DNA from: an uncultured Bacteroidales bacterium
Lineage (GTDB): Bacteria; Pseudomonadota; Alphaproteobacteria; Rs-D84
Reading direction: 5' to 3'
Assembly: GCA_964514455.1 (NCBI GenBank)
Contig: CAZEWI010000013.1
Coordinates: 1 to 14,759, forward strand
DNA length: 14,759 nucleotides
The stretch's first letter is position 1, and every line of letters starts with the position of its first letter. The notes below the pieces were generated by a model that had not been told where the DNA came from, did no database searches, and saw nothing but the letters and a program-made list of their open reading frames with translations. Positions 1 through 14,759 of the stretch are shown in pieces. The position numbers and the translations under genes are program-made.

Positions 1-1
1 T

Positions 2-77
2 GCCACAATAGCTCAGTTGGTAGAGCACTTCATTCGTAATGAAGGGGTCGCAGGTTCGATTCCTGTTTGTGGCACCA
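2..77 (+). tRNA. tRNA-Thr (anticodon CGT)
   Basis: Cloverleaf folded by eye: acceptor gccacaa/ttgtggc, D arm gctc-agttggta-gagc, anticodon stem cttca/tgaag with loop ttCGTaa, T arm gcagg-ttcgatt-cctgt, discriminator a, encoded CCA at 75-77. Confidence 0.9.
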
Positions 78-80
78 GTT

Positions 81-114
81 AAAAATAAAACCCCTCAAAT
101 GAGGGGCTTTTTTT
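81..114. terminator. Bidirectional rho-independent terminator (tRNA-Thr on +, gapR-like gene on -)
   Basis: Stem cccctc(91-96)/gagggg(101-106) with loop aaat. A-run lies upstream (81-90) and T-run downstream (108-114), so it reads as hairpin+U-tract on both strands. Confidence 0.7.
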
Positions 115-128
115 ATACTAAATAAGGA

Positions 129-374
129 TTACAATCCAATCAATTTTCTATATTCTGAAAGGAGCATTTCATTTTCTGCTAATTCGTCAGCATCTGTGGC
201 CCTCATTTTTAATAATTGTCTGATACATTTTGTATCAAAGCCGACACCTTTTGCTTCTTTGAATATCTCGCGAATATCGGCCCTTAAACTAGACATTTCT
301 TCCTGTAATGATTCAATTCTTTCTAATAAAGATGTCAATTGTTCTGCATTTAAGTCTCTAATACCTTTTGCCAT
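129..374 (-). CDS. gapR: GapR-like nucleoid-associated protein (DUF2312 family), 81 aa
   Basis: Short coiled-coil protein with the family core ...IREIFKEAKGVGFDTKCIRQLLKMR..., comparable to Caulobacter GapR. ATG at 374 is preceded by AGGAG (minus strand). Confidence 0.8.
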   Translation of the reverse strand: MAKGIRDLNAEQLTSLLERIESLQEEMSSLRADIREIFKEAKGVGFDTKCIRQLLKMRATDADELAENEMLLSEYRKLIGL

Positions 375-392
375 TAGTCCTACTCCTTTTTC

Positions 393-421
393 TTGCTTTT
401 AATGGTTAAAAATTGTATAAT
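393..421 (+). promoter_or_regulatory. Candidate sigma70-type promoter for pyk
   Basis: TTGCTT (393-398), 17 nt spacer, TATAAT (416-421). A second TATAAT lies at 428-433. AT-rich background makes chance matches likely. Confidence 0.35.
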
Positions 422-463
422 TGATTGTATAATAAAAACAAAAAAAATCAAGGAAAATAAAAT

Positions 464-1897
464 ATGAAAATGAAACTCACAAAAATTCTAGCAAGTATTG
501 GGCCTTCCAGTGAAAATATGTTGGAGAAACTTGTTGATGCAGGTATGAATGCTATTCGTCTGAATTTTAGTCATGATACTCACGAGGCTCAGAAAAAGAA
601 AATTTTAGCAATTCGTGAAATTTCTAAAAGAAGAGGGATTCCTATTGCGGTTGTCGCAGACTTGCAAGGACCTAAACACCGAATCGGAGATTTTATCGGG
701 GGTGATAAAGGAAAAAAATATATTTTGAAAGTAGGGCAAAAATTTATACTAGATTCTAATCCAAAACTAGGCGATGATAAAAGAGTTTGCTTGCCAGATT
801 CCGATGTTATGAAAGCCCTGAGTGTTGGAGCAAGAGTCTTACTCAATGACGGAAAAATGGAATTGATTGTTCGCAAAAAATTAAAAGATAGTGTTGAAAC
901 CGAAGTCGTCAGAGGTGATGAAATCTGGGATCGCAGGGCCTTTAACATTCCTAATGCTGAAATTGATACTCCTATTTTAACAGAAAAAGACAAAGATGAT
1001 TTATTATTTGCTCTTAAATGCGGAGTTGATTGGGTGGCCGTGTCTTTCGTCCAAAAGGCCGAGGATATTGATTTCGTTCGTGAGTTTATTACTAAAAACT
1101 CCAGAGAACATATTCGCATAATTTCTAAAATTGAAAGGCCTCAGGCAGTGGAAAGATTGGAATCTATTATCAATACTTCAGATGGTGTTATGATTGCTCG
1201 TGGAGATTTAGCAGTAGAAATGCCTTACGAGAAAGTTCCAGTTATTCAAAGGCAAATTATCAGACTATGTCGTCAAAAAAATAAGCCTGTTATAGTTGCT
1301 ACTCAAATGATGGACGCTATGATTGAGAACTTATTTCCAACTAGGGCAGAAGTATCAGATGTTGCGACTGCTTGCTATCAAAAAACCGATGCGACTATGT
1401 TGTCTGGTGAAACCACCATGGGAAAATACCCTCTGGAAACCGTTCAGGCTATGGCTAAAATTTTGGAAGAATCTGAAATGGATCAAATAGAAAATGATTG
1501 CTCGTCAGAAAGTGGAGAACCTTGTATAGAGCCAGAATCTGCTTTGGCTGAATCTATTGTTGATATGGCGATATTAAATGAAGCCGTTGCAATAGTAGTA
1601 TTTTCAGGCTCGGGAGATACAGCCAGAGAATTATCTGCTCGCCGTTCTATGATTCCTATTATAGCGATATGTAAAATAGAATTGTATGCGAATCAGTTAT
1701 CTATATCAAATGGAGTAGTTCCTATATTTGATGATAAAACAGTCAAAGGTCAAAAGTATGAAAATATAGCCTCGGCTTATGCTAAAAAATATAAGTTTGC
1801 TAAAAAAGGCGATAATATAATAGTGATAACTAAAGGTGATTTAAGAGATAACTTTGCTCATAACTCCCGAATCATAACCGTTATAACAGTGGATTAA
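464..1897 (+). CDS. pyk: Pyruvate kinase, 477 aa
   Basis: N-terminal TKILASIGPSS...AGMNAIRLNFSHD, then ISKIE...DGVMIARGDLAVE and ATQMMDAMI...PTRAEVSDVA. These are canonical pyruvate kinase motifs. AAGGA RBS lies upstream. Confidence 0.95.
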   Translation: MKMKLTKILASIGPSSENMLEKLVDAGMNAIRLNFSHDTHEAQKKKILAIREISKRRGIPIAVVADLQGPKHRIGDFIGGDKGKKYILKVGQKFILDSNPKLGDDKRVCLPDSDVMKALSVGARVLLNDGKMELIVRKKLKDSVETEVVRGDEIWDRRAFNIPNAEIDTPILTEKDKDDLLFALKCGVDWVAVSFVQKAEDIDFVREFITKNSREHIRIISKIERPQAVERLESIINTSDGVMIARGDLAVEMPYEKVPVIQRQIIRLCRQKNKPVIVATQMMDAMIENLFPTRAEVSDVATACYQKTDATMLSGETTMGKYPLETVQAMAKILEESEMDQIENDCSSESGEPCIEPESALAESIVDMAILNEAVAIVVFSGSGDTARELSARRSMIPIIAICKIELYANQLSISNGVVPIFDDKTVKGQKYENIASAYAKKYKFAKKGDNIIVITKGDLRDNFAHNSRIITVITVD

Positions 1898-1912
1898 AAA
1901 ATTGAATATATT

Positions 1913-1941
1913 AAAAAAAGCCGGTAATTACGGCTTTTTTT
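1913..1941. terminator. Bidirectional terminator between convergent pyk and the nuclease gene
   Basis: Stem agccg(1919-1923)/cggct(1931-1935), flanked by A7 (1913-1919) and T7 (1935-1941). Confidence 0.65.
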
Positions 1942-1946
1942 ATTAA

Positions 1947-3062
1947 TTATTTTCCCGATTTTCTACGGTTGCAACTTTTACAAAGCATTTGGCAGTTTTC
2001 GCTATTAGTTTTTCCTCCAGAATGCCAAGGGTCAATATGATCGGCTTCCATTTCATCAATTTCAAAATGTTCTCCGCAAACTTCGCAAATTCCATTTTGC
2101 CGTTCGTATGCTTCTCGCTTCATATTTTCAGTAAAAGCCCGAATATTCAAAGCCCGTTCATTCTTTTTTCCACTTAGTAAGTATTCGTAAATACCTTTTT
2201 TATTTGTAACATCATCATCAAGTATTAAACGATTGATTTCTGATTCAAGTTCAGTAGTATCGTATTGATTTTTATTATATTCATTATAAAGGAATCCCCA
2301 CTCAACACTTTTCATAATATCGCGATATTTTGGAAATACTGTTTTAACCCATTCAATTACAGAATTAAAATATAACCATAATTCACTGGAATTTTGATCG
2401 TGTTGATGTTGTCCCATATATTCACGAATTCCAGAATCTGTGTTTTTTGTATTATTACTAATCCATTTAATAGCAGTTTCTAAATACTTCTGTCTAATAC
2501 AAGAGCCGGACATATATTTTGAAGCAATACCATAAGCAGGACAATTAGTTTTACTAAAATATCTTTTAGCCTCGGTTAGCCAAGAACCACGATAAATAGC
2601 ATTTCTAATTTCTTGATCTTCTAATTTTTCACCAGCGATATTTATGATTTGAAACCAATCAATAATTTCCGAATCGGTTCCATTACTGCAAATATAAATC
2701 TGAAGTTTATATTTTAATATTTTTTCTTGTTCGTCAGATTCAAAACTATGAAAAGGTCTTTCATCAATAGAAAAATCATTATCAAGAAATTTACATATAG
2801 AAAGAGTCCTTTGTTGCCCATCCAACAATTCGTATTTATCATCAGAAGTTTTAATCCAATACATAACATTTAGAGGGTAACCTTTTATAATAGTGCGAAT
2901 CACTTCGCTCTGTTGTTTCGGAGCATAAACAAATTCTCGCTGATAAGCAGGGCGAATATCAAGCAATCCGCCATAGCCAACAACTCCTTCTTCATCACGA
3001 TTTAGATAGCCATTAAATAAATCACGAACAGTGATTTCAACAAGTTCAATTTTCATAGTCAT
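1947..3062 (-). CDS. DUF262 (ParB/Srx-like, DGQQR motif) + C-terminal HNH nuclease, GmrSD-like architecture, 371 aa
   Basis: N-terminal ...YELLDGQQRTLSI... (DGQQR at aa 81-85) typical of DUF262. C-terminus CEVCGEHF...ADHIDPWHSGGKTNSENCQMLCKSCNRRK is a CxxC...DH...N...CxxC HNH zinc-ribbon. Strong RBS AAGGAG lies 7 nt before the ATG at 3062. Confidence 0.85.
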   Translation of the reverse strand: MTMKIELVEITVRDLFNGYLNRDEEGVVGYGGLLDIRPAYQREFVYAPKQQSEVIRTIIKGYPLNVMYWIKTSDDKYELLDGQQRTLSICKFLDNDFSIDERPFHSFESDEQEKILKYKLQIYICSNGTDSEIIDWFQIINIAGEKLEDQEIRNAIYRGSWLTEAKRYFSKTNCPAYGIASKYMSGSCIRQKYLETAIKWISNNTKNTDSGIREYMGQHQHDQNSSELWLYFNSVIEWVKTVFPKYRDIMKSVEWGFLYNEYNKNQYDTTELESEINRLILDDDVTNKKGIYEYLLSGKKNERALNIRAFTENMKREAYERQNGICEVCGEHFEIDEMEADHIDPWHSGGKTNSENCQMLCKSCNRRKSGK

Positions 3063-3324
3063 TTTTAGACTCCTTTTTTAGTTTTATTAAGATTCGCACA
3101 TAAGTTCTTTTGTTATTTATTGTGCAATCATTGATTAGCCCATTTTTTAGATTTGTAGATATAGGATATACAAGATCAACGGGTTCTATATCTTCCTTAT
3201 CGTTATACGAGCATAAGTATTTCTCCCATTTATTTTGCCCTCTGTATTTTTTATCATTCCTGCGATACTCGTTGAACAAGGATACGAAAGAATGGTTGAA
3301 CTCTCTCTCTCTCTCTAGTAAACA
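3046..3324 (-). other. Open alternative frame downstream of the (AG)8 tract carrying a second MTase-type C-terminal motif (not called as an independent gene)
   Basis: The frame is open from 3324 to the stop at 3046, translated by hand through the tract. It ends ...LINDCTINNKRTYVRILIKLKKE. It has only a TTG start (3279) and no RBS. It joins the MTase frame if the tract gains 2 nt. Confidence 0.3.
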
Positions 3325-4153
3325 CTAGGTCTTTCCCATCTTCGCCTTTACGAAAAGCGACAATCTCAAACTGATTCGGATTATATTTATCAAGAAAAGT
3401 AATGGGAACTCCCATAACTCCATAATAATCACAAGGAATATCAGCAACTTTATCAACATTGATAGCATCATAATTATCGTATTTAGGGTATTCCTTTGGA
3501 TTGTACTTTTTATACAAAATCATTTTTTCATTTCGTTTATTATGAGAAAGATTTGTATACCAACTAACATTTCCAAAATTTTGAAATTCTCCATTTGTTT
3601 TTAGAAAACTTTTTACATGATTATAACCACACCAAATTTTATTTTCTTTAATCAACTTAAAGACTTCTTTATATGTTCTACAATTATCATTTCCAATAAT
3701 TAAAAACTTTTTATTATATTCTATCAATTGAGCGACATATTCGCGAAACAAAGAAAAAGGGGGATTTGTACAAACTATATCTGCTTCTTTTAATAATTCA
3801 ATACAGTCAGTACTACGGAAGTCTCCGTCACTAAACATCATTTCAATTTTTTCCACATCTTTACGATTTATTTTTTTATCTTTATTTTTATCTTTTTCTA
3901 TTATTAATTTATAGCTTGCAGAGTCTTTTTCATAATGAGTACAAATCAACTTTTTCAACCCAAGGTATTCAAAATTATCTGCAAAATACCTGAAAAAATG
4001 AGACCAATCTGGATCATCGCAATTACAATAAACAACTTTTCCCTTGAAATGTTCTTTGTAATTTTTTAATTCGTTTTCTATATCTGCTCTTTGAGTATAA
4101 AATTCGTCATTCTTGGCTTCTCGTGCTGAATGTAAATTAGAATTTTTAGCCAT
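3254..4153 (-). CDS. N6-adenine DNA methyltransferase, M.EcoRI family, 299 aa from ATG 4153
   Basis: MAKNSNLHSAREAKNDEFYTQ, VVYCNCDDP, catalytic TNPPF (nt 3766-3755), GVMGVPITFLDKYNP, C-terminal FRKGEDGKDL...PFFRILV. The track start at 4165 is TTG. The ATG at 4153 with GGGGA upstream is preferred and matches the family N-terminus. Confidence 0.9.
   Translation of the reverse strand: MAKNSNLHSAREAKNDEFYTQRADIENELKNYKEHFKGKVVYCNCDDPDWSHFFRYFADNFEYLGLKKLICTHYEKDSASYKLIIEKDKNKDKKINRKDVEKIEMMFSDGDFRSTDCIELLKEADIVCTNPPFSLFREYVAQLIEYNKKFLIIGNDNCRTYKEVFKLIKENKIWCGYNHVKSFLKTNGEFQNFGNVSWYTNLSHNKRNEKMILYKKYNPKEYPKYDNYDAINVDKVADIPCDYYGVMGVPITFLDKYNPNQFEIVAFRKGEDGKDLVFTRERERVQPFFRILVQRVSQE
3301..3316 (-). 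repeat. Dinucleotide simple sequence repeat (AG)8 on the coding strand, inside the MTase 3' end
   Basis: ctctctctctctctct on the + strand, read directly. It encodes RERER in ...LVFT-RERER-VQPFFRILV. Confidence 0.95.
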
Positions 4154-4171
4154 TACAATCCCCAAAATTAT

Positions 4172-4200
4172 AAAAAATAACCGCCAATAAGAATGGCGGT
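4172..4200 (-). terminator. Unidirectional rho-independent terminator (minus strand)
   Basis: 7 bp stem accgcca(4200-4194)/tggcggt(4186-4180) on the minus strand, 7 nt loop, followed by ttattttttat. There is no T-run on the + strand side. Confidence 0.7.
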
Positions 4201-4400
4201 CGGGGTGTGGTAATCAGTTTATCATTGATTCTGGGTCTTTGGACAAGTCCTATTGTATAACTTCCAGATCCCCAACTAAATCAGGGATATAACGGTGCAA
4301 AAACACCGAAACATCAGAATTACGATGTTTTTAACACCGGATAAACAGGGCCACCACAGCCCGAACCCAATTCCCATCGGATTCAAAAAAGAGTATAGAA
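4172..4400 (-). ncRNA. Candidate structured RNA of unknown family (or long structured 3' UTR of the DUF721 gene)
   Basis: A ~230 nt non-coding gap, clearly richer in G/C than its flanks. It has several local hairpins: aaacatc/gatgttt, cggtg/caccg, atccc/gggat, tctgg/ccaga enclosing ggac/gtcc. A long-range 5'/3' pairing (gttcgggctgtggt with accacaccccgac) sits next to the terminator. TATAAT at 4412-4407 (minus) is a possible own promoter. Confidence 0.35.
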
Positions 4401-4429
4401 AAGTTTATTATAAAATGCTAGTTTTATTT

Positions 4430-4768
4430 TTAATTCACAAATTTTATTTTTTTGATTGTATTATGGCCGTAGTAGGAGTTTAATTTTTCTAATAATTTTT
4501 TTTCTGAATAGGACATCAATAAAGCACTTGATTTTGATATCATTTTAACGGTCAGAGTCCGGTCTTCTTTTCCTTTTGTTAGTTTGACTACTTTTATCTG
4601 ATTCGCCATTTCATCTCCGACTATATTCGCCCAATTCATAATTAAATCCGCATCGCTGATATTGCCTCCCAATGTTTTTACAACTCTATTTAATGAGGCC
4701 GAAAAATGACAAGGGTGTTTTACCCTCTCTTCAAATTTGAATTTCTTAAAAGTCTTCGTTATACTCAA
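4430..4768 (-). CDS. DUF721 (DciA-like) protein, 112 aa
   Basis: ...LIMNWANIVGDEMANQIKVVKL...RTLTVKMISKSSALLMSYSEKKLLEKLNSYYG...IKKIKFV fits the DUF721 pattern. The start is TTG at 4768 and overlaps the rpoH stop by 23 nt, so the start is uncertain. Confidence 0.7.
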   Translation of the reverse strand: MSITKTFKKFKFEERVKHPCHFSASLNRVVKTLGGNISDADLIMNWANIVGDEMANQIKVVKLTKGKEDRTLTVKMISKSSALLMSYSEKKLLEKLNSYYGHNTIKKIKFVN

Positions 4769-5693
4769 TTTCTTTCACCTTGGACTCGTCTGTTAAAACA
4801 CTCCGCATATCTTTTGCATCTTCTAAAATCGCTAGTTTTAATTTCTCGTATGCTCGCTCTGCTATCTGACGAACTCTCTCTTTTGAAACACTATATTTCA
4901 AAGCCAAGTCTTCTAATGTTATAACAGGGTCCGATAAATATCGGGCTTTTATAATGTCTTGCTCCCGCTCTGATAAATCCGAGAGATGTTTGCGGAGTAA
5001 TTCCGCCCCTCTGATATTCATTTCCTTTCTTTCCAAAGCCTCTTCACTAGTTTGTTTTGTATCTGACAAATCGTCTATCAATTCGCCTTCATCTTCATCA
5101 TTGCTCTTGGTCTGATTTAACGAAATATGACGAGTCATCCAACTGGACATTTTTTTAACTTCGTTAGATGAAACACCTAAAAGGCCGGCAATCTCGTCCG
5201 CATTACTATCTGTAAGTTTTCCAGAGTCTATTATTCCAAGTTGTTTTTTTGCCCTAGATAAATTAAAAAATAATTTCTTTTGATTGGAACTATTACCTAT
5301 TTTTACAATGGACCAATTAGACAATATGCTCTCATAAATAGCGGCTTTAATCCACCACATCGCATAAGTCGTAAGTCTAAATCCTTTGTCTGGGTCAAAT
5401 TTTTTAACTGCTTGCATAAGACCTATATTACCCTCAGAAATTAAATCAGAAATTGGTAATCCATAATGGCGAAACTCATAAGCAACCGAAACTACTAACC
5501 TTAAATGAGATGTAACCAATTTTTCCGCAGCAAGTTTATCTCCAGAATCAATCCAGTCTTTAGCGAGATTATACTCTTCTTCTGCCGTTAAAATCGGAAA
5601 TCTCTGAACCTCACGAATATATTGCTCTAAACCGGTATCATCACTTGCTCCGCGAATCGCTATCAAGGACCGATTTGTGTTTTCTTTACTCAT
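4746..5693 (-). CDS. rpoH: RNA polymerase sigma-32 (heat-shock sigma factor RpoH), 315 aa
   Basis: Sigma70-family regions 2-4 (LRLVVSVAYEFRHYGLPISDLISEGNIGLMQAVKKFDP) plus the RpoH box NQKKLFFNLSRAKKQL. Confidence 0.93.
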   Translation of the reverse strand: MSKENTNRSLIAIRGASDDTGLEQYIREVQRFPILTAEEEYNLAKDWIDSGDKLAAEKLVTSHLRLVVSVAYEFRHYGLPISDLISEGNIGLMQAVKKFDPDKGFRLTTYAMWWIKAAIYESILSNWSIVKIGNSSNQKKLFFNLSRAKKQLGIIDSGKLTDSNADEIAGLLGVSSNEVKKMSSWMTRHISLNQTKSNDEDEGELIDDLSDTKQTSEEALERKEMNIRGAELLRKHLSDLSEREQDIIKARYLSDPVITLEDLALKYSVSKERVRQIAERAYEKLKLAILEDAKDMRSVLTDESKVKEIEYNEDF

Positions 5694-5746
5694 AATTTGA
5701 ATTATAACATAATTTTTATCAGAAATAAACTAATAAATCCCAATTT

Positions 5747-5863
5747 TTAATTTACTGGGTATGTCCTAGGAAACTCATTCCCGTTAGGGTGATCAAGGTT
5801 GGATTTTACCCCACAACCCGTTAGTATAAGACAAATTGAAAGAACTAAAATTAAATATCTCAT
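5747..5863 (-). CDS. Small lipoprotein, 38 aa, LptM/YifL-like (not in the ORF track)
   Basis: Hand translation: MRYLILVLSICLILTGCGVKSNLDHPNGNEFPRTYPVN*. It has the lipobox LTGC followed by GVK..L..P, and AGGAAA 6 nt before the ATG. It explains the G/C-enriched patch between rpoH and tRNA-Leu. Confidence 0.55.
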   Translation of the reverse strand: MRYLILVLSICLILTGCGVKSNLDHPNGNEFPRTYPVN

Positions 5864-5879
5864 TGTTTTTCCTATGTTT

Positions 5880-5966
5880 TGGTGCCCGAGACAGGACTTG
5901 AACCTGCAAGATATTACTATCACTAGTACCTGAAACTAGTGCGTCTACCAATTTCGCCACCCGGGC
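5880..5966 (-). tRNA. tRNA-Leu (anticodon CAG), class II with long variable arm
   Basis: Minus strand gcccggg-tg-gcg-aaattggtaga-cgc-a-ctagt-ttCAGgt-actag-tgatagtaatatcttg-cagg ttcaagt cctg-tctcgggc-a-cca, with CCA encoded. Confidence 0.9.
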
Positions 5967-6025
5967 CTAGTTTGACCAAAATAATAGTCTAATTAAAAAA
6001 AATTTCAAGAAAAATAATGATTTAT

Positions 6026-6054
6026 TTGAAATTTAGATATTTTTGTGTTATAAT
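6026..6054 (+). promoter_or_regulatory. Candidate sigma70 promoter for carD (extended -10)
   Basis: TTGAAA (6026-6031), 17 nt spacer, TGtTATAAT (6046-6054), ~37 nt upstream of the ATG at 6091. Confidence 0.45.
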
Positions 6055-6090
6055 AAACTATAATAATTGTCTAAATAGAGGTTTTTTACT

Positions 6091-6648
6091 ATGGCTACTA
6101 AAGCAAAATTGAGTTTTAAGAAAGGGCAGTTCGTTGTTTATCCAGTTCATGGAGTAGGACAAATTAAATCTATTGAAGAGCAAAAAATTGCTGGTCAAAA
6201 ATTGGAACTAATCGTTATTGAATTTGAAAAAGATAGAATGACTTTAAGGATTCCTTTGGCTAAGGCCGAGACTTCCGGTTTAAGACAAATCTCATCTTGT
6301 AAAACTATGGACGAGGCTATTCAATCTGCTAAAAAAAGCCCTAGTGTTAAAAGGGTTATTTGGTCCAGACGTGCTCAACAATACGAGGAAAAAATCAATT
6401 CTGGAAATCCTTGTGAATTGGCTGATGTTATTCGCGATCTACAAAGAAGAGATCCAACCGATGTTATGACATTCTCGGGTCGTCAAGTTTATACCAAGGC
6501 TTTGACTCGTATGGCGGAAGAATTCGCAATTATTCACAAAATTGATGTTGATACTGCATCTGAAAAAATTGAAAAAATCCTGGGGATTCCAAAGGAAATT
6601 GAAATCAATTTTGATGAAGATAAATCAGACGAATCTTTAGATGAATAA
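6091..6648 (+). CDS. carD: CarD-family transcriptional regulator, 185 aa, acidic C-terminal tail
   Basis: FKKGQFVVYPVHGVGQIKSIEEQKIAGQKLELIVIEF...MTLRIPLAKA is the CarD/TRCF RNAP-interacting domain. AGAGG RBS present. Confidence 0.88.
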   Translation: MATKAKLSFKKGQFVVYPVHGVGQIKSIEEQKIAGQKLELIVIEFEKDRMTLRIPLAKAETSGLRQISSCKTMDEAIQSAKKSPSVKRVIWSRRAQQYEEKINSGNPCELADVIRDLQRRDPTDVMTFSGRQVYTKALTRMAEEFAIIHKIDVDTASEKIEKILGIPKEIEINFDEDKSDESLDE

Positions 6649-6715
6649 AATCACATTATAGCATAAAGTTTTTACTGGATTTTTAGAAAATCTATGTCAA
6701 ACTGATAATGCTTTT

Positions 6716-6790
6716 GTCCCTATCGTCTAGCGGTCAGGACGTCAGATTCTCATTCTGAAAACACGAGTTCGATTCTCGTTAGGGATACCA
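6716..6790 (+). tRNA. tRNA-Glu (anticodon CTC)
   Basis: gtcccta-tc-gtct-agcggtca-ggac-g-tcaga-ttCTCat-tctga-aaac-acgag-ttcgatt-ctcgt-tagggat-a-cca. The 5' half resembles canonical tRNA-Glu (GUCCC.UUCGUCUAG). Position 1-72 is a G-U pair. Confidence 0.88.
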
Positions 6791-6800
6791 AAAATTTAAC

Positions 6801-7280
6801 TTATTTTTTTAAGCATTTTTTTAGGACATCAAAAGCAGCATTTATTTCTGCAAATTTTTTTGTATCTCCACCTAAATCAGGGTGATGTTTTTTAGCAAGT
6901 TTTCTATACTCTTTTTGTATAGCATCTATTGTAATCGGCCATTTTAATCCAAGTGTTTTTAATGCTTTATTTTGGGGAGGTGTAGGAGCCTTTGTTTTTA
7001 CATAATTACCGGTCTTTTGGCCAAGTAGTGATTTCAAAAACTCTAAATCTGTATCAAATTTTCTTTTGGTTCCTCCGAATATAGATTTCGTTTCCCGGGA
7101 TTTTTCATCATCTTTAATTATATCTTCAATAGACATTCCCGCATAATAATTCCAATTTTTATTATATTCTGCCGCATGCTTTTTACAAAAATTATAATAC
7201 TCTTTTAGATTTCTATCTTTTGGAGCACGACAAGTTCCAATTTCTTCACAGCCTAGAAAATCACATTTCTTAAAAGCCAT
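6801..7280 (-). CDS. J-domain (DnaJ-like) co-chaperone with N-terminal Cys/His-rich domain, 159 aa from ATG 7280
   Basis: C-terminal J domain ...IQKEYRKLAKKHHPDLGGD...FAEINAAFDVLKK. N-terminal CDFLGCEEIGTCRAP...FCKKHAAEYNKNWNYY. ATG 7280 with AAGGA upstream is preferred over the track start at 7328. It overlaps the xerD stop by 11 nt. Confidence 0.8.
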   Translation of the reverse strand: MAFKKCDFLGCEEIGTCRAPKDRNLKEYYNFCKKHAAEYNKNWNYYAGMSIEDIIKDDEKSRETKSIFGGTKRKFDTDLEFLKSLLGQKTGNYVKTKAPTPPQNKALKTLGLKWPITIDAIQKEYRKLAKKHHPDLGGDTKKFAEINAAFDVLKKCLKK

Positions 7281-8163
7281 ATTTTTTTCCTTTTTCTGCC
7301 AGTGGGTGATGTTTTTGGACCGCATCAATTAAATGTTGAGGCAATACATGAGTATATATTTGAGTTGTTGCAATGTCTTCATGTCCAAGCATAGTTTGAA
7401 TCGCCCGAAGATTCGCTCCGCCAGCAAGTAAATGGGAAGCAAAAGAATGCCTTAAAACATGGGGCGAAACTCTATCTGGATTTATTCCTGCTATTAAAGC
7501 ACACTTTTTCAGTATCTTAAAAAATGCATCTCGGGTTAAATGCCCAGTTTCTCCGCTGCTAGGAAATACAAAAGGTGAATTTTTTTGTCCGCTTGGAATA
7601 AATGCTTCGCGGACATCTAAATAATCATCAAGGGCTTTAACAGCGGTTTCATGAATTGGAACAAATCTTTCTTTTGAGCCCTTGCCATGAATTAAAAGTC
7701 TGCCATCAAGAATAGCACTCATAGGTAAGCATACAAGTTCAGACACACGAAGCCCCGATGCATACATAACCTCTATCATAGCATGAAGCCTTTTCCTGTG
7801 CTTTATATCATCAGAGGCATCAATCAATTCAACTATTTCCTCGGGTGTTAGATATTTTGGAAGTTTTTTTTGTCTTTTAGGTAATTCAATTCCTATCATG
7901 GGATTTTCGTTCATAATCTTTTCCAGATTCAAAAAATTATAAAATCCACGAAGAGCAGATGCCTTGCGAGCAATCGTAGTGCTTCTTGTATTCTTTTTTA
8001 TCAGTTCTGTAAAGTAATTTTGAATTTTGTCGGTTGTAAGACTTGTTAAATCTCCCAATTCACTTTCTATATTATTCAAATCAGAGGAATAAGAACTGAT
8101 AGTCAAATTTGCCCTAGCCTGTTCGGCTGCTAGCATTTCAAGATACATTTCAATATAGTTCAT
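7270..8163 (-). CDS. xerD: Site-specific tyrosine recombinase XerD, 297 aa
   Basis: ASGLRVSEL, HGKGSKERFVP, HLTRDAFFKILKKCALIAGI, SPHVLRHSFASHLLAGGANLRAIQTMLGHEDIATTQIYTHV give the R..HxxR..Y catalytic set. The pattern resembles XerD more than XerC. Confidence 0.8.
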   Translation of the reverse strand: MNYIEMYLEMLAAEQARANLTISSYSSDLNNIESELGDLTSLTTDKIQNYFTELIKKNTRSTTIARKASALRGFYNFLNLEKIMNENPMIGIELPKRQKKLPKYLTPEEIVELIDASDDIKHRKRLHAMIEVMYASGLRVSELVCLPMSAILDGRLLIHGKGSKERFVPIHETAVKALDDYLDVREAFIPSGQKNSPFVFPSSGETGHLTRDAFFKILKKCALIAGINPDRVSPHVLRHSFASHLLAGGANLRAIQTMLGHEDIATTQIYTHVLPQHLIDAVQKHHPLAEKGKKYGF

Positions 8164-8306
8164 GGTTTTGGATATAATAATGTCTCGGTCACAAAGTCAG
8201 GGGCAGGGTATGTGAATATAGTCAGTGCAATAAGTGCAATCACAGCCACAATAATAAGATATTTTTTATAATTTATTCTTCTTTTCCTGCGAGATAAACC
8301 GACCAT
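8160..8306 (-). CDS. Small membrane protein, 48 aa, translationally coupled to xerD (not in the ORF track)
   Basis: Hand translation: MVGLSRRKRRINYKKYLIIVAVIALIALTIFTYPAPDFVTETLLYPKP*. AAGGAG lies 6 nt before the ATG at 8306. Basic N-terminus plus one TM helix. Its TGA overlaps the xerD ATG (ATGA). Confidence 0.5.
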   Translation of the reverse strand: MVGLSRRKRRINYKKYLIIVAVIALIALTIFTYPAPDFVTETLLYPKP

Positions 8307-8375
8307 TAGAAACTCCTTTCAATAAATTATAACATATTTTTTGGAAAAAATCACTAAAAATCCATAATTTAAGTC

Positions 8376-8403
8376 TTGATTATTGAGATTTTTAATTTAT
8401 AAT
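8376..8403 (+). promoter_or_regulatory. Candidate sigma70 promoter for mreB
   Basis: TTGATT (8376-8381), 16 nt spacer, TATAAT (8398-8403). Confidence 0.4.
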
Positions 8404-8438
8404 CCAATCAGAATTTTAATTTACGGCTAATAAAATAG

Positions 8439-9509
<1,071 letters not shown>

Positions 9510-9523
9510 AAAAAGAATTGAAT

Positions 9524-9552
9524 AAAAAAAGTGCCAATTTGGCACTTTTTTA
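9524..9552. terminator. Bidirectional terminator between convergent mreB and the pilin-like gene
   Basis: A7 (9524-9530), stem gtgcc(9531-9535)/ggcac(9541-9545), T-run 9546-9551. Confidence 0.7.
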
Positions 9553-9571
9553 TTTGATAGGTATTTTAATT

Positions 9572-9922
9572 TTATTTCCAAGCACTCAAAACAGTATCAG
9601 CATCAGGTAAAAATGCAGTAATTAAAACTTGAACTCCGAATAGCAAAACAAAGCCAACTATAACAGAAATAATCCAAGCTTTTTCTTTTTTCCAATCAAA
9701 CTCACCTTTTTCAATATAACCCCATGCTTTCCCTAAAATAACAAAAGCAAGTCCTATAAAGGCAAGATTTCTGATGATTACAAAAACCGGATAAATTTTT
9801 CCAGCTAAAGCATTAGCGGCATTGGTATTTACCCCGTCAAGAGCATACCCTGTTGATATAGTCGCAGCAATAAATAGCATAGCAAGAGTTGCAGGTTTTA
9901 AGAATTTTTTTAAGTTTTTCAT
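9572..9922 (-). CDS. Secreted small two-helix membrane protein, VirB2/TrbC pilin-like, 116 aa
   Basis: Signal peptide MKNLKKFLKPATLAMLFIAATISTGYA, then LDGVNTNAANAL..., hydrophobic helix, charged loop (GYIEKGEFDWKKEK), second hydrophobic helix. This is the same layout as T4SS pilins, recalled from Brucella VirB2 (...GGLDKVNTF...). Strong AGGAG RBS. Confidence 0.5.
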   Translation of the reverse strand: MKNLKKFLKPATLAMLFIAATISTGYALDGVNTNAANALAGKIYPVFVIIRNLAFIGLAFVILGKAWGYIEKGEFDWKKEKAWIISVIVGFVLLFGVQVLITAFLPDADTVLSAWK

Positions 9923-9982
9923 ATTTTTCTCCTTTCTTATTTTGTCATTATATCAGAAAATAAACCTCCCTGCAAGTTGTTT

Positions 9983-10189
9983 TTATAATTTCTTATCAGA
10001 TGATATTTTTTCAGATTTTACAGGCAAAGTTTTATTTGGAATATTGACACTCACATTTTGCTTTGGAGCCTCGGTTATATGTGGAGGAACTATTAGTTTT
10101 TCATTCTCTGTAATTATAGGCTCATTTCTGCAATTGCAACATGCGGAAATACTTAAAATTAAAATAGGTAGTGCCAAAAGTTTTTTCAT
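9983..10189 (-). CDS. Small lipoprotein, 68 aa
   Basis: MKKLLALPILILSISAC has the lipobox ISAC, followed by a Pro/Lys-rich unstructured tail. AAGGAA RBS present. Confidence 0.6.
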   Translation of the reverse strand: MKKLLALPILILSISACCNCRNEPIITENEKLIVPPHITEAPKQNVSVNIPNKTLPVKSEKISSDKKL

Positions 10190-10254
10190 ATTATATTCCT
10201 TTCTTTTTTATGTTTTATAAATTGAGTTGCTTTCAGCAACAAATTTATTTGAAC

Positions 10255-10295
10255 TGGATTCTCGGGTCAAGCCCGAGAATGACACAACGCTGTGT
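10255..10295. repeat. Palindromic repeat element, copy D (TGGATT-hairpin-AATGACA) plus a second small hairpin
   Basis: attctcggg(10258-10266)/cccgagaat(10272-10280) is a perfect 9 bp stem with loop tcaag. It is followed by gaca, then acaca/tgtgt (10282-10295). The flanks match the copies at 13903-14050. Confidence 0.8.
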
Positions 10296-10391
10296 TCGTT
10301 GTTTTGTAATTTATTATAACATCTAGAAAAAAATTCTTCAAGTTAAAGATTTATATTGTCTTTTTTTTTTAAGTGTTTTATCATCTTACTT

Positions 10392-11393
10392 ATGAGAAGG
10401 TTTCTAATCGTATTTTCAGGATTTTGTTTTTATAGTTCATTATTATGGGCTCCGCCATATTTTGCTGAACAAGATTACGATAAACCTAGCGATGTTGAAA
10501 ATTCTGTCATAGCGGGTCCAAGTCCTGAAACTCCAGTAGAAAGAGTTGGAGAAGGTATGGGTAGAATTGCCTCTGGGGTGGCTAATGCTATGGGTAATAA
10601 TTTTCAAATTCCAATTGGAAATACAGAGAATGACGATATTGTAGATGATGACCAATATCAAGATGTGCTTGATGATGAAAATGCCGTGATTGATGTTGAT
10701 GCAGAAAAAACTTTCGCAGATGTTTTTCTAGATAATGCTAATGAAACAGTTGATCTTGCTCCAGGACAAAAATTCAAAAATGTCGCTATCTTTGATATTC
10801 AAGGTGTTGCTCTGGGACAAAGATTTGACGATATTCAGACAGTTTTTTTTAATACTAAAAATTTATATACTCCTGTCGCAAAAGACTCTATTACATACAC
10901 TATTCCAAAAGAATGGAAGTATAATCTAGATTATGAATGTAGGCAACAAGGTTTATTTGTTCCTGCTGATGTAAGCCAATGTATTAAAACTAGTGCTATA
11001 AAGAAAGGCATTCTATATCCTGCCGAAGTTCGTCTTGAAAGGGCTAGTACAGGGGAAAAAATCTATATATTTTTAACCTCTAATTTAACAGATAATCTTG
11101 TTTATAAAGTCATATACCACAACGATGTCAATGAATTATCTGGGAATGGTGAAGTTTTCCAATATCAAAAAGAAAAAAAGATTTTGAACTTTTGGAAAAA
11201 TGTCTTGGAAAAATTCGGACAACCAAATTCTGGCTCGTCGGAATGGATTTCTTCTGATAATCCTTATGACCCAAAAATGAGTGCTGCATACGGAGAACTT
11301 ATTTTGGAAAATCAAGGACTCTATTATAAAGACTTGGAAGAAAATGCTAAAAATTCCGAGGAAAATTTCAAAGCAAAAGATTATGCTTTCTAA
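10392..11393 (+). CDS. Secreted hypothetical protein with acidic N-terminal region, 333 aa from ATG 10392
   Basis: MRRFLIVFSGFCFYSSLLWA looks like a signal peptide, followed by a D/E-rich stretch (DDIVDDDQYQDVLDDENAVIDVD). No family recognised. The track start at 10356 is TTG within a T-run. Confidence 0.6.
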   Translation: MRRFLIVFSGFCFYSSLLWAPPYFAEQDYDKPSDVENSVIAGPSPETPVERVGEGMGRIASGVANAMGNNFQIPIGNTENDDIVDDDQYQDVLDDENAVIDVDAEKTFADVFLDNANETVDLAPGQKFKNVAIFDIQGVALGQRFDDIQTVFFNTKNLYTPVAKDSITYTIPKEWKYNLDYECRQQGLFVPADVSQCIKTSAIKKGILYPAEVRLERASTGEKIYIFLTSNLTDNLVYKVIYHNDVNELSGNGEVFQYQKEKKILNFWKNVLEKFGQPNSGSSEWISSDNPYDPKMSAAYGELILENQGLYYKDLEENAKNSEENFKAKDYAF

Positions 11394-11445
11394 TGTGGTA
11401 TTAAAATACCGTATATGATTTTTGATTGATTTTATGCTATTTTGC

Positions 11446-11474
11446 TTGACTTTATGATTTCTTTAATTTATAAT
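11446..11474 (+). promoter_or_regulatory. Near-consensus sigma70 promoter for rplM-rpsI
   Basis: TTGACT (11446-11451), 17 nt spacer, TATAAT (11469-11474). Confidence 0.55.
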
Positions 11475-11563
11475 CGCCTTGTCTTAAAAAGATTTTACAG
11501 AGTATAAATATGTAAAGTGCTTATTTTCTCTGTATTACAAACAACAAAACAAAAGGAAAAACT

Positions 11564-12034
11564 ATGGCTACACCAAGTTTAAAAAAAGCAGATTTGAAAT
11601 CCGATTGGATTCTAATTGATGCTACTGATTTAGTTTTGGGTCGTTTGGCTGTTCAAATCGCAAACTTGTTGCGTGGAAAACACAAACCTCAATACACTCC
11701 TCATATGGACGGCGGTGATAATGTTATCGTTGTCAATGCTTCTAAAATCGCTTTAACTGGTCGCAAAGCAGATCGTGAAAGTTTTTATTGGCACTCTGGA
11801 TTCCCTGGTGGAATTAAATCCAGAACCAAGGGCGAATTGCTTGCTAATAAACCAGAAGAATTACTATTCAATGCTGTAAAACGTATGATGGGTCGCACTA
11901 GATCTTCCGCTCTTGCAGATCAACGTTTAACTAAATTACACATTTATGCCGGAGCAGAACATAAACACTCTGCACAAAAACCAGTTGTTATGGATTTTGG
12001 TTCTCTAAATGTTAAAAATAAAAGGAGTGCATAA
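11564..12034 (+). CDS. rplM: 50S ribosomal protein L13
   Basis: [46 protein letters not shown] is a canonical L13 N-terminus. Confidence 0.96.
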
Positions 12035-12462
12035 TGGTTGCTACAAAAGAAACAGTCGTATCTGTTACAAAAAATCCTAAGGTTATTTCTGCAACTGGTA
12101 AAAGAAAAGATTCTGTTGCTAGAGTTTTCTTGGCTCCTGGAAAAGGAAAAATTTTTGTAAATGATCTTGAATTAAATGCTTATTTCAAAAGACCTGTATT
12201 ACAAATGATTATCAATCAACCTTTTGCTGTCGCTAAAAGAGAAGGTGCTTATGATGTTTGGGCTACTGTTAAAGGTGGCGGACTTTCTGGACAAGCCGGT
12301 GCTGTTAAACACGGTATTTCCAAAGCACTTACATTGATTGAATCTGAATTGCGTCCTGAATTGAAAAAAGCAGGATTCTTGACTCGTGATTCCCGTGTTG
12401 TTGAAAGAAAACACTTCGGTTTCCACAAGGCAAGACGTTCAACTCAATTCTCAAAACGTTAA
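12034..12462 (+). CDS. rpsI: 30S ribosomal protein S9
   Basis: [40 protein letters not shown]-terminal [10 protein letters not shown]. The start overlaps the rplM stop (TAATG). Confidence 0.96.
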
Positions 12463-12471
12463 TTTTATACT

Positions 12472-12527
12472 CCCAGTTTTTTGGTCGGCTATTTATTTCT
12501 TGGTTGGACCAAAACTCTGGGATTTTT
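12472..12527 (+). terminator. Long hairpin plus T-run after rpsI (terminator or attenuator ahead of tig)
   Basis: cccag(12472-12476)/ctggg(12517-12521) and ttttggtc(12479-12486)/gaccaaaa(12507-12514), with a 2 nt mismatch in between. Followed by attttt. Confidence 0.5.
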
Positions 12528-12544
12528 CATAAAAAGGAGTTCTT

Positions 12545-13846
12545 ATGTTTGACAATAAATATCTAAAAAAAGAAAAAGTTAAAGATTTACATTACACTCT
12601 CTCACTAGTTTTTCCAAAGGATTTAATTGAAAAAAAATCTGATGAATTACTAATGGAACATGGTAAAAAAACAAAATTAGCAGGATTTCGCCCAGGACAT
12701 ATTCCTTTGGAAGTCTTGCGTCAGCATTTCGGAAATGCTATGCTGGATCAAGCAATCAATTCAATTATGAATGAATGGATGGACGGCTATATTGCAGAGA
12801 AAAAAATCCGCTTGGCCGGTTCTCCTAAGGCGGATATGAAAAATTATCAAGCAGGAAATGATCTTGATTTCAATCTTGATTTTGACATCTTGCCAGCACT
12901 TCCAAAAATTGAATTAGACAAAATTACTCTTACTAAAAAAGTTGCTGAATTTGATGAAAAAGAAGCAGAAAAAGCACTTGATAATATAGCAAAATCTCGT
13001 CGCGTTTTGAAAGAAATTGCCGATGAAAATACTGTTGCTAAAAAAGGTCATACTGCTGTTATAGACTTCAAAGGATTCGTTGGAGACACTGCTTTTGAAG
13101 GCGGAGAAGCAAAAAAACATTATTTGGAATTAGGTTCAAATACTTTTATTCCTGGCTTTGAAGATCAAATAATTGGTCATAAAAAAGGCGATAAATTTGA
13201 TGTAAATGTTAAATTTCCAAAAGAATATCATGCTGAAAATTTGGCAGGTAAAGATGCCAGATTTGAAATTCTTTTACACGAACTTAAAGAAGTTTCTATT
13301 CCTGAAATCAATGATGATTTTGCAAAAGAAGTCGGTATGGAAAATGTTGCTAAATTAAAAGATCATATTAAAAAGATTTTAATGGATCAATATGACATTG
13401 CTTCTAAAAATTCTATGAAAGAAGAATTATTAGATGTTCTTGCTGATAAAGTTAAAATGGATATTCCTGAATCTCTCATTGAGCAAGAGTTTGACTTAGC
13501 AAAAAGAAATGCAGAATCTAAAAAAGAAACTTTTGATGAAAAATCTGCTAAAAAAGATGCTGAAAAAAGAGTAAAACTCGGATTGATTTTGGCTGAATGG
13601 GGAAATCAAAATAAAGTTGAATTGACTCAAGAAGAAGTTCAACAGGCTATTATGCAAGAAGCAATGAGATACCCTGGACAACAACAAGCAGTTTTTGATT
13701 ACTATAACAAAAACAGAAATGCTTTGATGATGCTCCGTGGAATGCTTTATGAGGGAAAAGTTCTTGATACTATGCTTGGACATGTAAAAACAAAAGATAA
13801 ACAAGTCAAAGCAAAAGAACTGTTTGAACCAGTTGAAGCAAAATAA
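12545..13846 (+). CDS. tig: Trigger factor (ribosome-associated PPIase chaperone), 433 aa
   Basis: GFRPGHIPLEVLRQHFG in the N-domain, FKBP-type core VIDFKGFVGDTAFEGGEAKKHYLELGSNTFIPGFEDQIIGHKKGD, and a helical C-domain. Confidence 0.93.
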   Translation: MFDNKYLKKEKVKDLHYTLSLVFPKDLIEKKSDELLMEHGKKTKLAGFRPGHIPLEVLRQHFGNAMLDQAINSIMNEWMDGYIAEKKIRLAGSPKADMKNYQAGNDLDFNLDFDILPALPKIELDKITLTKKVAEFDEKEAEKALDNIAKSRRVLKEIADENTVAKKGHTAVIDFKGFVGDTAFEGGEAKKHYLELGSNTFIPGFEDQIIGHKKGDKFDVNVKFPKEYHAENLAGKDARFEILLHELKEVSIPEINDDFAKEVGMENVAKLKDHIKKILMDQYDIASKNSMKEELLDVLADKVKMDIPESLIEQEFDLAKRNAESKKETFDEKSAKKDAEKRVKLGLILAEWGNQNKVELTQEEVQQAIMQEAMRYPGQQQAVFDYYNKNRNALMMLRGMLYEGKVLDTMLGHVKTKDKQVKAKELFEPVEAK

Positions 13847-13865
13847 ATAAATTGCTAAAAATAAT

Positions 13866-13891
13866 AAACGGAGCGAATGCTCCGTTTTTTT
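13866..13891 (+). terminator. Rho-independent terminator of tig
   Basis: Stem cggagc(13869-13874)/gctccg(13879-13884), loop gaat, then T7. Confidence 0.8.
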
Positions 13892-13902
13892 ATATTATAG
13901 AA

Positions 13903-13938
13903 AGATTGCCACAGGCAAGAGCCCTCGCAATGACAGGG
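13903..13938. repeat. Palindromic repeat element, copy A (degenerate)
   Basis: gattgc...gcaatgacag: the outer 5 bp stem attgc(13905-13909)/gcaat(13927-13931) and the AATGACA flank are kept, while the interior pairing is decayed. Confidence 0.55.
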
Positions 13939-13963
13939 TGGTGCTAATTGAGCGGGTCATAAC

Positions 13964-13991
13964 GAGATTCCTGACCAAGTCAGGAATGACA
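13964..13991. repeat. Palindromic repeat element, copy B
   Basis: attcctgac(13967-13975)/gtcaggaat(13979-13987) is a perfect 9 bp stem with loop caa, followed by gaca. Confidence 0.8.
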
Positions 13992-14018
13992 GCGTATATT
14001 TTATAAGGAATGTTTTAC

Positions 14019-14050
14019 CTGGATTATCGGGTCGGGCCCGATAATGACAC
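14019..14050. repeat. Palindromic repeat element, copy C
   Basis: ctggatt + attatcggg(14023-14031)/cccgataat(14037-14045), a perfect 9 bp stem with loop tcggg, followed by gacac. It is nearly identical to copy D except for compensated stem positions. Confidence 0.8.
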
Positions 14051-14083
14051 AAAGAATAAGGAACGTTAGATTGAAAATAAGGG

Positions 14084-14112
14084 TTGATGTTGCTGTCTTT
14101 TTATGATATAAT
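14084..14112 (+). promoter_or_regulatory. Strong candidate sigma70 promoter with extended -10
   Basis: TTGATG (14084-14089), 17 nt spacer, TGaTATAAT (14104-14112). Confidence 0.5.
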
Positions 14113-14118
14113 TCATTG

Positions 14119-14298
14119 GTAATCAAGGAGTGGTTTCTTGATTATGAGGTCTCAAAACCTCGCCATAGGCGTCAAATAAAAGACGAAAAACCTCCAACTG
14201 GGTTGGAGGGTGGGTAATAAGCATTTTGCAAATATCTACACTATACTTATGGATAGTTTTGAGCCTCCAACCGCCACTTAAAAACTGGCGATTTTTTA
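14119..14298 (+). promoter_or_regulatory. Structured ~180 nt leader RNA (candidate attenuator/riboswitch-like element or sRNA) upstream of the last ORF
   Basis: Hairpins taatcaag/cttgatta (14120-14144), gaggt/acctc (14146-14161), cctccaac/gttggagg (14191-14209). cctccaac occurs again at 14264-14271, directly abutting the terminator stem. See findings. Confidence 0.4.
14272..14298 (+). terminator. Leader terminator
   Basis: cgcca(14272-14276)/tggcg(14286-14290), 9 nt loop, then attttttatt. Located 24 nt upstream of the ATG at 14322. Confidence 0.5.
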
Positions 14299-14321
14299 TT
14301 CATAAAAAAGGAGAAAATATT

Positions 14322-14759
14322 ATGAAAATATTAAAAAATAAACTAAATAAGGCAAAATCGGTTATAAAATCAATGGTGCCACCTGAAAGAGATCTATTAT
14401 TGAAAAGAATTAGAATACAAATCTCTACCCATGAAGGATTGTTAGGTTATGATAAATCTTTGGATAATTATCTAAAAGATAGAATTACAAAATGTAAAGA
14501 AATAAAAGCATTAGCAGATAAAGGAGAAATTTCTTTGGCTAAAGATATGTTATATTCCTTTCTAGGTGCGGGCAAGAGCTGGACGTATATCCACGAGATG
14601 ATAAAAATCGTAAAACAAAGAGAAAAAGTTGAACAAAAATTAAAACAGGAAAAAGAGAGAGTTGACGGCGGATTTGCAAAACTAAAAGATATTGATAGAA
14701 GAAAAAAAGCAGATAAAAAATTTTACAAAGATAATGAAATCCTAGCATTAAAACAAAGA
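14322..14759 (+). CDS. Hypothetical Lys-rich protein, 3'-truncated by the window end (146 codons seen)
   Basis: Hand translation MKILKNKLNKAKSVIKSMVPPERDLLLKRIRIQISTHEGLLGYDKSL...GAGKSWTYIHEMIKIV... is open to the last base. AAAGGAG lies 8-9 nt upstream. It is absent from the track because no stop falls in the window. No family recognised. Confidence 0.6.
   Translation, partial: MKILKNKLNKAKSVIKSMVPPERDLLLKRIRIQISTHEGLLGYDKSLDNYLKDRITKCKEIKALADKGEISLAKDMLYSFLGAGKSWTYIHEMIKIVKQREKVEQKLKQEKERVDGGFAKLKDIDRRKKADKKFYKDNEILALKQR

Follow-up and report, generated by a model that had tools for sequence, protein, structure and literature searches.

Introduction

The literature regards nucleases with a DUF262 domain as enzymes that depend on DNA modification or sense it. 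In GmrSD and BrxU, an N-terminal DUF262 domain with a DGQQR motif is joined through a helical linker to a C-terminal nuclease of the His-Me finger class, DUF1524; these proteins stand alone, are stimulated by nucleoside triphosphate (NTP) and depend on modification of the DNA they attack. SspE, the nuclease of the phosphorothioate system SspABCD-SspE, has a DUF262-DUF1524 architecture and is activated by sensing the mark of its host; it acts in concert with a module that modifies host DNA (PMC9646914), the genes of which do not amount to a single methyltransferase. NsnA of the Menshen system and PD-T4-2 are further defence proteins that contain DUF262, and the Menshen study has raised the possibility that ParB-DUF262 domains situated next to methylases target non-modified DNA (PMC12065111). 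Here we analyse a DUF262 nuclease gene that lies beside a DNA methyltransferase gene in a 14,759-nt stretch of DNA (hereafter, the window), comprising positions 1 to 14,759, forward strand, of contig CAZEWI010000013.1 (GenBank assembly GCA_964514455.1), from an uncultured bacterium deposited as Bacteroidales and placed by GTDB in the Alphaproteobacteria (Rs-D84).

The methyltransferase of this pair belongs to the family of M.EcoRI, and the EcoRI restriction-modification (R-M) system is a two-gene Type II module of the sort often borne on plasmids; its site is GAATTC, methylated as GA-m6A-TTC. Its nuclease, R.EcoRI, is a PD-(D/E)XK enzyme. Type II enzymes of the HNH type are also known, for example KpnI, Hpy99I and PacI, and to our knowledge these carry no ParB/Srx-like NTP-binding domain. 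We suggest that the pair in the window is probably a classical, methylation-blocked two-gene Type II R-M system whose nuclease is of GmrSD-like build.

Results

The upstream gene of the pair, on the minus strand at 3254-4153, encodes an EcoRI-family N6-adenine DNA methyltransferase of 299 aa, counted from the ATG at 4153; the open reading frame (ORF) reaches 4165, where a TTG start would give 303 aa, and the ATG is the likely true start. The product matches the Pfam family EcoRI_methylase (PF13651) with an E-value of 6.9e-117 and 391 bits, against a curated cut-off of 26.4, and the PADLOC model MTase_II with an E-value of 6.7e-107. As reference we used M.EcoRI from a 5.6-kb E. coli plasmid, on which its gene adjoins one annotated as 'type-2 restriction enzyme EcoRI'. 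Residues 1-320 of the 326 in M.EcoRI align to the window protein at 50% identity (tblastn), and the MAFFT alignment gives 55.7%. The window protein carries the segments KNDEFYTQ, VVYCNCDDP, TNPPF and FRKGEDGKDL...FFRILV; DEFYT, CNCDDP and TNPPFSLF are kept in at least 97% of 74 methyltransferases of the family as well as in the window protein, and the conserved catalytic motif IV (N-P-P-F, aa 130-133 from the ATG; 3755-3766, minus strand) lies inside the invariant TNPPFSLF. Because the alignment to M.EcoRI runs through residue 320 of 326, the window methyltransferase can be taken as full length and, judged on its sequence, as a motif-complete relative of M.EcoRI. The reach of that alignment also rules out a frameshifted C-terminus of the methyltransferase hidden in the 191-nt spacer that follows the gene.

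In a neighbour-joining tree of the 74 family members, M.EcoRI sits among the methyltransferases that are paired with nucleases combining DUF262 and HNH domains. Its identity to these paired methyltransferases ranges from 44.6% to 62.8%, with a median of 52%, and the median inside the paired group is 55.9%; the paired methyltransferase closest to M.EcoRI, at 62.8%, comes from a cyanobacterial metagenome-assembled genome (MAG; locus L015). No R.EcoRI homolog was found in any of the loci compared. One methyltransferase lineage therefore appears to serve two unrelated nucleases.

The downstream gene (1947-3062, minus strand) encodes the putative restriction nuclease, of 371 aa, to which Pfam assigns GmrSD_N/DUF262 (E-value 3.6e-19) and HNH (PF01844; 2e-14), with no match to DUF1524 at E<=0.1. 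A preliminary description, drawn from the sequence alone, had made the DUF262, HNH and EcoRI_methylase calls that Pfam now bears out; all the peptide motifs it quoted, LLDGQQRT and CEVC...ADHIDPWH...N...CKSCN included, are found in the translations, as are the catalytic residues. From an alignment of 62 sequences we obtained an AlphaFold2 model (predicted local distance difference test (pLDDT) 86.7; predicted template-modelling (TM) score, pTM, 0.71) that falls into three parts, an alpha/beta N-terminal part (approximately aa 1-157), a helical part (160-305) and a beta-beta-alpha-metal HNH part (310-371). The DUF262 domain (aa 36-157; 2592-2957, minus strand) holds the motifs Q41-R42-E43-F44 and D81-G82-Q83-Q84-R85, which are invariant in the alignment and are predicted to form the NTP-binding pocket. 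In the HNH nuclease domain (aa 326-369; 1956-2087, minus strand), C326-x2-C329, D341-H342, N356, C361 and N365 are invariant and C364 is variable, and every invariant family residue that was checked is present in the window nuclease. The invariant HNH residues correspond to the D/H-H general base, structural Asn, metal-binding Asn/His and zinc cysteines of His-Me finger nucleases. Between these two lies a conserved, all-helical domain of about 145 residues (aa 160-305; 2148-2585, minus strand), modelled at a pLDDT of mostly 85-96 and rich in invariant residues such as W200, W229, W238 and W255, which we regard as a candidate DNA-recognition or dimerisation module. The earlier view that the nuclease has no visible sequence-reading domain is, given this part of the model, doubtful.

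The best solved structure retrieved with the model by Foldseek is BrxU (7p9k; E-value 4e-4, probability 0.95, TM score of only 0.2), followed by a Geobacter HNH nicking endonuclease, ParB CTPases and sulfiredoxin; the match to SspE is weak (E-value 0.28). At the level of sequence, the HNH domain aligns to PDB entry 4h9d, an HNH nicking endonuclease, with an E-value of 7e-7. The PADLOC model of NsnA spans aa 34-243 (1e-27), a partial match, and PD-T4-2_A also matches (2.7e-15). The window nuclease thus resembles GmrSD and BrxU in domain order, with DUF262 and its DGQQR at the N-terminus, a His-Me finger nuclease at the C-terminus and a helical linker between them, but its C-terminus is a zinc-ribbon HNH (PF01844, CxxC...C) rather than DUF1524, it is about 200 residues shorter, and nucleases of its kind are almost always paired with a methyltransferase instead of standing alone. 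Since it has no DUF1524 and is not solitary, it is not a strict member of the GmrSD family. It departs from Menshen in that the window pair has neither NsnB nor NsnC, and in the direct fusion of an HNH domain to its DUF262 module. With HNH-type Type II enzymes it has in common a beta-beta-alpha-metal core with zinc-binding cysteines and, on our reading, a methylation-sensitive Type II use.

More than 8000 homologs of the nuclease were retrieved, of about 360 aa and at about 60-66% identity, and those that are named are called just 'DUF262 domain-containing protein', which is also the NCBI name of the window nuclease. At E<=1e-30, matches to the nuclease make up 459 clusters (50% identity) among 1.84 billion cluster representatives, nearly all of them sharing one full-length architecture, and at least 584 species genomes have a match (one genome scanned per species). 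We searched the best 80 loci from these species matches with the window methyltransferase. The 80 loci cover more than 15 phyla, including Patescibacteria, Bacteroidota, Bacillota, Spirochaetota, Cyanobacteria, Chloroflexota, Campylobacterota, Pseudomonadota, Acidobacteriota and Verrucomicrobiota, together with one Woesearchaeota MAG. An EcoRI-family methyltransferase lies on the strand of the nuclease in 79 of them: directly upstream in 72, downstream in one, and at a distance of 1.2-3.7 kb in six. The interval from methyltransferase stop to nuclease start is between -32 and +20 nt in 60 of these 79 loci, a 4-nt overlap being the commonest arrangement. There is no conserved third gene within 3 kb of the pair, the largest cluster of neighbours being present in 6 of the 80 loci. 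The two genes are, then, a co-inherited functional pair and not chance neighbours. The arrangement had at first been taken as atypical, a description that does not hold for a pair which occurs in at least 584 species genomes, on plasmids and in a phage, and for which PADLOC has models of both proteins.

Plasmid-borne pairs were found in Macrococcoides, Mammaliicoccus, Sulfitobacter, Aeromonas, Variovorax, Gordonia, Ruania, Ligilactobacillus, Lactiplantibacillus and Pediococcus, at 41-59% nuclease identity. The 7.5-kb plasmid pLa3_1 of L. agilis carries, besides the pair, just a rep gene and a gene for a MerR-family regulator. The latter (322-795 in locus L010) is directly upstream of the methyltransferase gene and may be a controller protein; the window has no counterpart. 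The cultured Flavobacterium phage vB_FspS_laban6-1 (NC_048834.1; locus L098, 1781-4143) has the pair at 39% nuclease identity, with the 4-nt overlap, between tail and other structural-region genes. On account of its patchy spread across phyla and its carriage by plasmids and phage, the family is, in general, mobile.

Two unusual arrangements were seen in the course of these comparisons. A protein of 688 aa (P0297) combines EcoRI_methylase, GmrSD_N and HNH in a single polypeptide, and is either a natural fusion of the two enzymes or an artefact of reading through the 4-nt overlap that is usual for the pair. In a Treponema MAG (locus L084), two full-length EcoRI-family methyltransferase genes (2361-3452 and 4910-6004) lie upstream of one DUF262-HNH nuclease gene.

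Residues 3-371 of the window nuclease match the PADLOC model PDLC03418, REase_II, 'Type II restriction enzyme', over model positions 1-372 of 372 with an E-value of 2.2e-130. Given that both the REase_II and the MTase_II models match, a defence-system finder would call an ordinary Type II R-M system here. The PADLOC models are ones that we take to be derived from REBASE. The family is thus already catalogued in defence-gene databases as Type II and, as far as is known, is uncharacterised: cluster look-ups of the window proteins returned no enzyme name, and neither a named prototype enzyme nor a recognition site for the pair was found in the literature on GmrSD, Menshen, R-M reviews, PADLOC and methylomes. 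Within it, the window pair is an ordinary member of a widespread and under-studied family; no other homolog found exceeds 67% identity to it.

The target site is most likely GAATTC or a related site with an AATT core, because one methyltransferase lineage, M.EcoRI included, serves both nucleases. Word counts in 22.8 kb of host DNA, consisting of window positions 1-14759 and 8 kb of locus L001, are in keeping with such a target but do not settle it. GAATTC occurs 3 times in this DNA against 10.7 expected, an observed-to-expected ratio (O/E) of 0.28; across the 80 loci it is the most depleted of the four hexamers with an AATT core (O/E 0.67, z -6.8). AATT (O/E 0.92-0.94) and RAATTY (0.89-0.94) are barely depleted when expectation comes from a maximal-order Markov model; against dinucleotide shuffles RAATTY is low (54 versus 87). 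In the supplements of Blow et al. (2016), REBASE predictions assign RAATTY or GAATTC to some EcoRI-like methyltransferases, but no link between those genes and the DUF262-HNH family was found.

Other palindromes are avoided to an extent far exceeding the depletion of GAATTC. Compared with dinucleotide shuffles, the window has 5 AGCT against 52 expected, 2 TCGA against 46 and 1 TTTAAA against 32, and the 22.8 kb of host DNA has no GCGC against 14 expected, 2 ATTAAT against 17 and 4 RTTAAY against 36 (Markov model). The only two TCGA sites of the window, at 56-59 and 6769-6772, fall within the genes for tRNA-Thr and tRNA-Glu, which are under sequence constraint. This palindrome avoidance suggests long exposure of the host to several other restriction specificities.

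The cassette shares in it: between 1947 and 4165, AGCT, TCGA, TTTAAA and ATTAAT together amount to 2 sites, against a median of 15.8 and a minimum of 2.2 in 66 homologous cassettes. Its G+C content is 0.320 in the nuclease gene and 0.290 in the methyltransferase gene, compared with 0.336 for the window, and at third codon positions (GC3) it is 0.20 in both genes, within the host range of 0.17-0.34. The preliminary description had pointed to an AT-rich cassette, contrasting 10 G/C at 3841-3900 with 29 at 8941-9000; those counts are exact, but they come from hand-picked 60-nt windows, and GC3 is host-like. No convincing tRNA gene, integrase gene, or direct or inverted repeat was found at the borders of the cassette. 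The nearest relatives of pyk (66% and 52% identity) do not have the pair next to pyk; in them the order gapR-pyk is kept and the region downstream is rearranged, leaving no clean insertion junction. Host-like GC3, borders free of mobile signatures and a palindrome avoidance common to the host would all point to long residence of the cassette, or else to a donor whose sequence biases match those of the host. The case for recent acquisition of this copy is weak, and the suggestion of a likely horizontally acquired island, made at first sight of the locus, is weakly supported for it.

The layout of the locus agrees with what had been noted at the outset, namely two co-oriented minus-strand genes 191 nt apart, bracketed by hairpins and by pyk on one side and DUF721-rpoH on the other. 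The spacer from methyltransferase stop to nuclease start (3063-3253) is unusually long in comparison with the 79 related loci; an AGGAG-like Shine-Dalgarno sequence precedes the ATG. On the nuclease side, a hairpin with a 12-bp stem and runs of T and A on both sides (1912-1942, plus strand) lies between the convergent pyk (464-1897) and nuclease genes and looks like a bidirectional terminator. On the methyltransferase side, a terminator-like hairpin with an 8-bp stem, 5 GC pairs and a T-run (4179-4201, minus strand) lies upstream of the methyltransferase start and probably ends the transcript of dciA/DUF721 (4430-4768), beyond which is rpoH (4746-5693). The region has five terminator-like hairpins, where shuffles lead one to expect 0.8. 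The stretch of about 230 nt that separates the methyltransferase start from the dciA stop (4202-4429) contains no convincing ORF and gave no Rfam match; a second hairpin, at 4362-4348, lies within this gap. The window protein is identical in four independent assemblies.

Discussion

We propose that the methyltransferase N6-methylates adenine in a short palindromic site on host DNA and would so protect it, and that the nuclease would cut or nick the same site when it is unmethylated. Cleavage would be the work of the C-terminal zinc-bound HNH active site (D341-H342...N356...N365), and the site would be recognised by the helical middle domain, by the N-terminal ParB-like DUF262 domain, or by both. 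NTP binding probably regulates the nuclease, as in BrxU, GmrSD and ParB, and probably gates its dimerisation or activity, because the nucleotide-binding motifs DGQQR and QREF known from GmrSD, BrxU and SspE are retained, without variation, in its DUF262 domain; this is the least certain step. Domain content, conservation of residues, strict co-occurrence and gene order, likeness to M.EcoRI and the match to a catalogued Type II profile are seen directly; the block by methylation, the recognition sequence, the use of NTP and the choice between double-strand cleavage and nicking are what we infer. In contrast to GmrSD and BrxU, the nuclease should be one that modification blocks, not one that requires it, because it is almost always paired with a methyltransferase (79 of the 80 loci). 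A Type II-like R-M system that uses a ParB-like/HNH nuclease was among the possibilities entertained in the preliminary description, and it is the best reading of the data. The likeness to the EcoRI system lies in a methyltransferase that is colinear with M.EcoRI, 50-56% identical to it and endowed with the same motifs. The differences lie in the nuclease, which is DUF262 plus HNH and unrelated to R.EcoRI, and in the gene order, which is methyltransferase then nuclease in the window and nuclease then methyltransferase on the E. coli plasmid. The nuclease might even share the specificity of EcoRI, as an isoschizomer of wholly different fold. It is also conceivable, if rather unlikely in our estimation, that the family makes up a distinct NTP-gated Type II class, in which a ParB-like switch controls clamp closing, dimerisation or the sensing of methyl state before the HNH domain cuts, and which would form a link, in evolution, from Type IV enzymes like GmrSD to classical R-M.

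Several observations weigh against a classical Type II system with an EcoRI-like site. Characterised DUF262 nucleases are all modification-dependent or modification-sensing (PMC12065111, PMC12707154), and no paper describing this methyltransferase-nuclease family was found in the accessible full-text literature. The window genes, at 191 nt from one another, are not translationally coupled. Several unrelated palindromes are as depleted as GAATTC, so that the depletion of GAATTC does not identify the site, and the literature contains EcoRI-family relatives that methylate RAATTY. In at least four of the 80 loci (L009, L026, L038 and L077), the methyltransferase is frameshifted and the nuclease intact, and in one more (L081) the methyltransferase is absent. 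An intact nuclease beside a defective methyltransferase is unexpected for a lethal restriction endonuclease, but assembly errors could explain it. Two of the frameshifts were pinned to a sequence feature, both of them homopolymers in MAGs: an A7 run (approximately 5722-5728) in L009, from Anaerolineales, and a G12 run (approximately 5163-5174) in L026, from a Clostridia MAG, the nuclease being intact in each. These two may be assembly errors or phase variation.

The same loci lend some support to the main rival, a mechanism in which the pair senses its own mark, as SspE does: the DUF262 domain would sense host m6A (N6-methyladenine), or a linked NTP signal, and license the HNH domain to nick incoming DNA, so that the nuclease alone would be inert and not lethal. 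Such a nuclease could persist where the methyltransferase is frameshifted or missing. Among solved structures, the closest HNH belongs to a nicking enzyme, and the DUF262 domain, in which DGQQR is intact, is similar to the sensor/NTPase domains of BrxU and SspE (PMC9646914). We nevertheless judge this mechanism very unlikely. The frameshifts may be assembly errors at MAG homopolymers, the structural match to SspE is weak, and the C-terminal nuclease is a classical HNH and not DUF1524. Moreover, an operon running from methyltransferase to nuclease with a 4-nt overlap, the minimal plasmids and the Type II restriction endonuclease profile fit classical R-M.

Improbable too, in our view, is the idea that this copy is a domesticated or decaying remnant, with a methyltransferase that is de facto an orphan of epigenetic or protective use and a nuclease that is poorly expressed or inactive despite its intact frame. 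The 191-nt spacer in place of the usual translational coupling would suit a remnant, as would the long residence implied by host-like GC3 and by palindrome avoidance common to the host, and orphan methyltransferases of the EcoRI family do exist (on a C. coli plasmid, and as RAATTY orphans). Against this stand the retention of all the invariant family residues checked, the identity of the sequence in four assemblies, and the hairpin at 1912-1942 and Shine-Dalgarno sequence, which suggest a normal gene. As for the possibility that a solitary, GmrSD-like nuclease of Type IV has come by chance to lie beside an orphan methyltransferase unrelated to it, the DUF262 nucleases of the literature are indeed Type IV enzymes without cognate methyltransferases (PMC4619093, PMC12707154). 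That explanation is nonetheless effectively refuted by the conservation of gene neighbourhood, since the pair lies on one strand in 79 of 80 loci across phyla, mostly overlapping, and recurs on plasmids and phage at 39-58% nuclease identity.

If the pair is read as a classical Type II R-M system, what has been gained for the window alone is mostly annotation: its nuclease provides the restriction activity of a Type II R-M module that is very widespread, and this particular locus adds little beyond the finding at the level of the family. The family, on the other hand, is an apparently uncharacterised case of a DUF262 nuclease that would work with a methyltransferase and not against modified DNA. 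Because this logic is the opposite of that of the known DUF262 nucleases, it provides a good test case for the role of the ParB-like NTP-binding domain in nucleases. Should its site prove to be GAATTC, two unrelated nuclease folds would be serving a single methyltransferase lineage.

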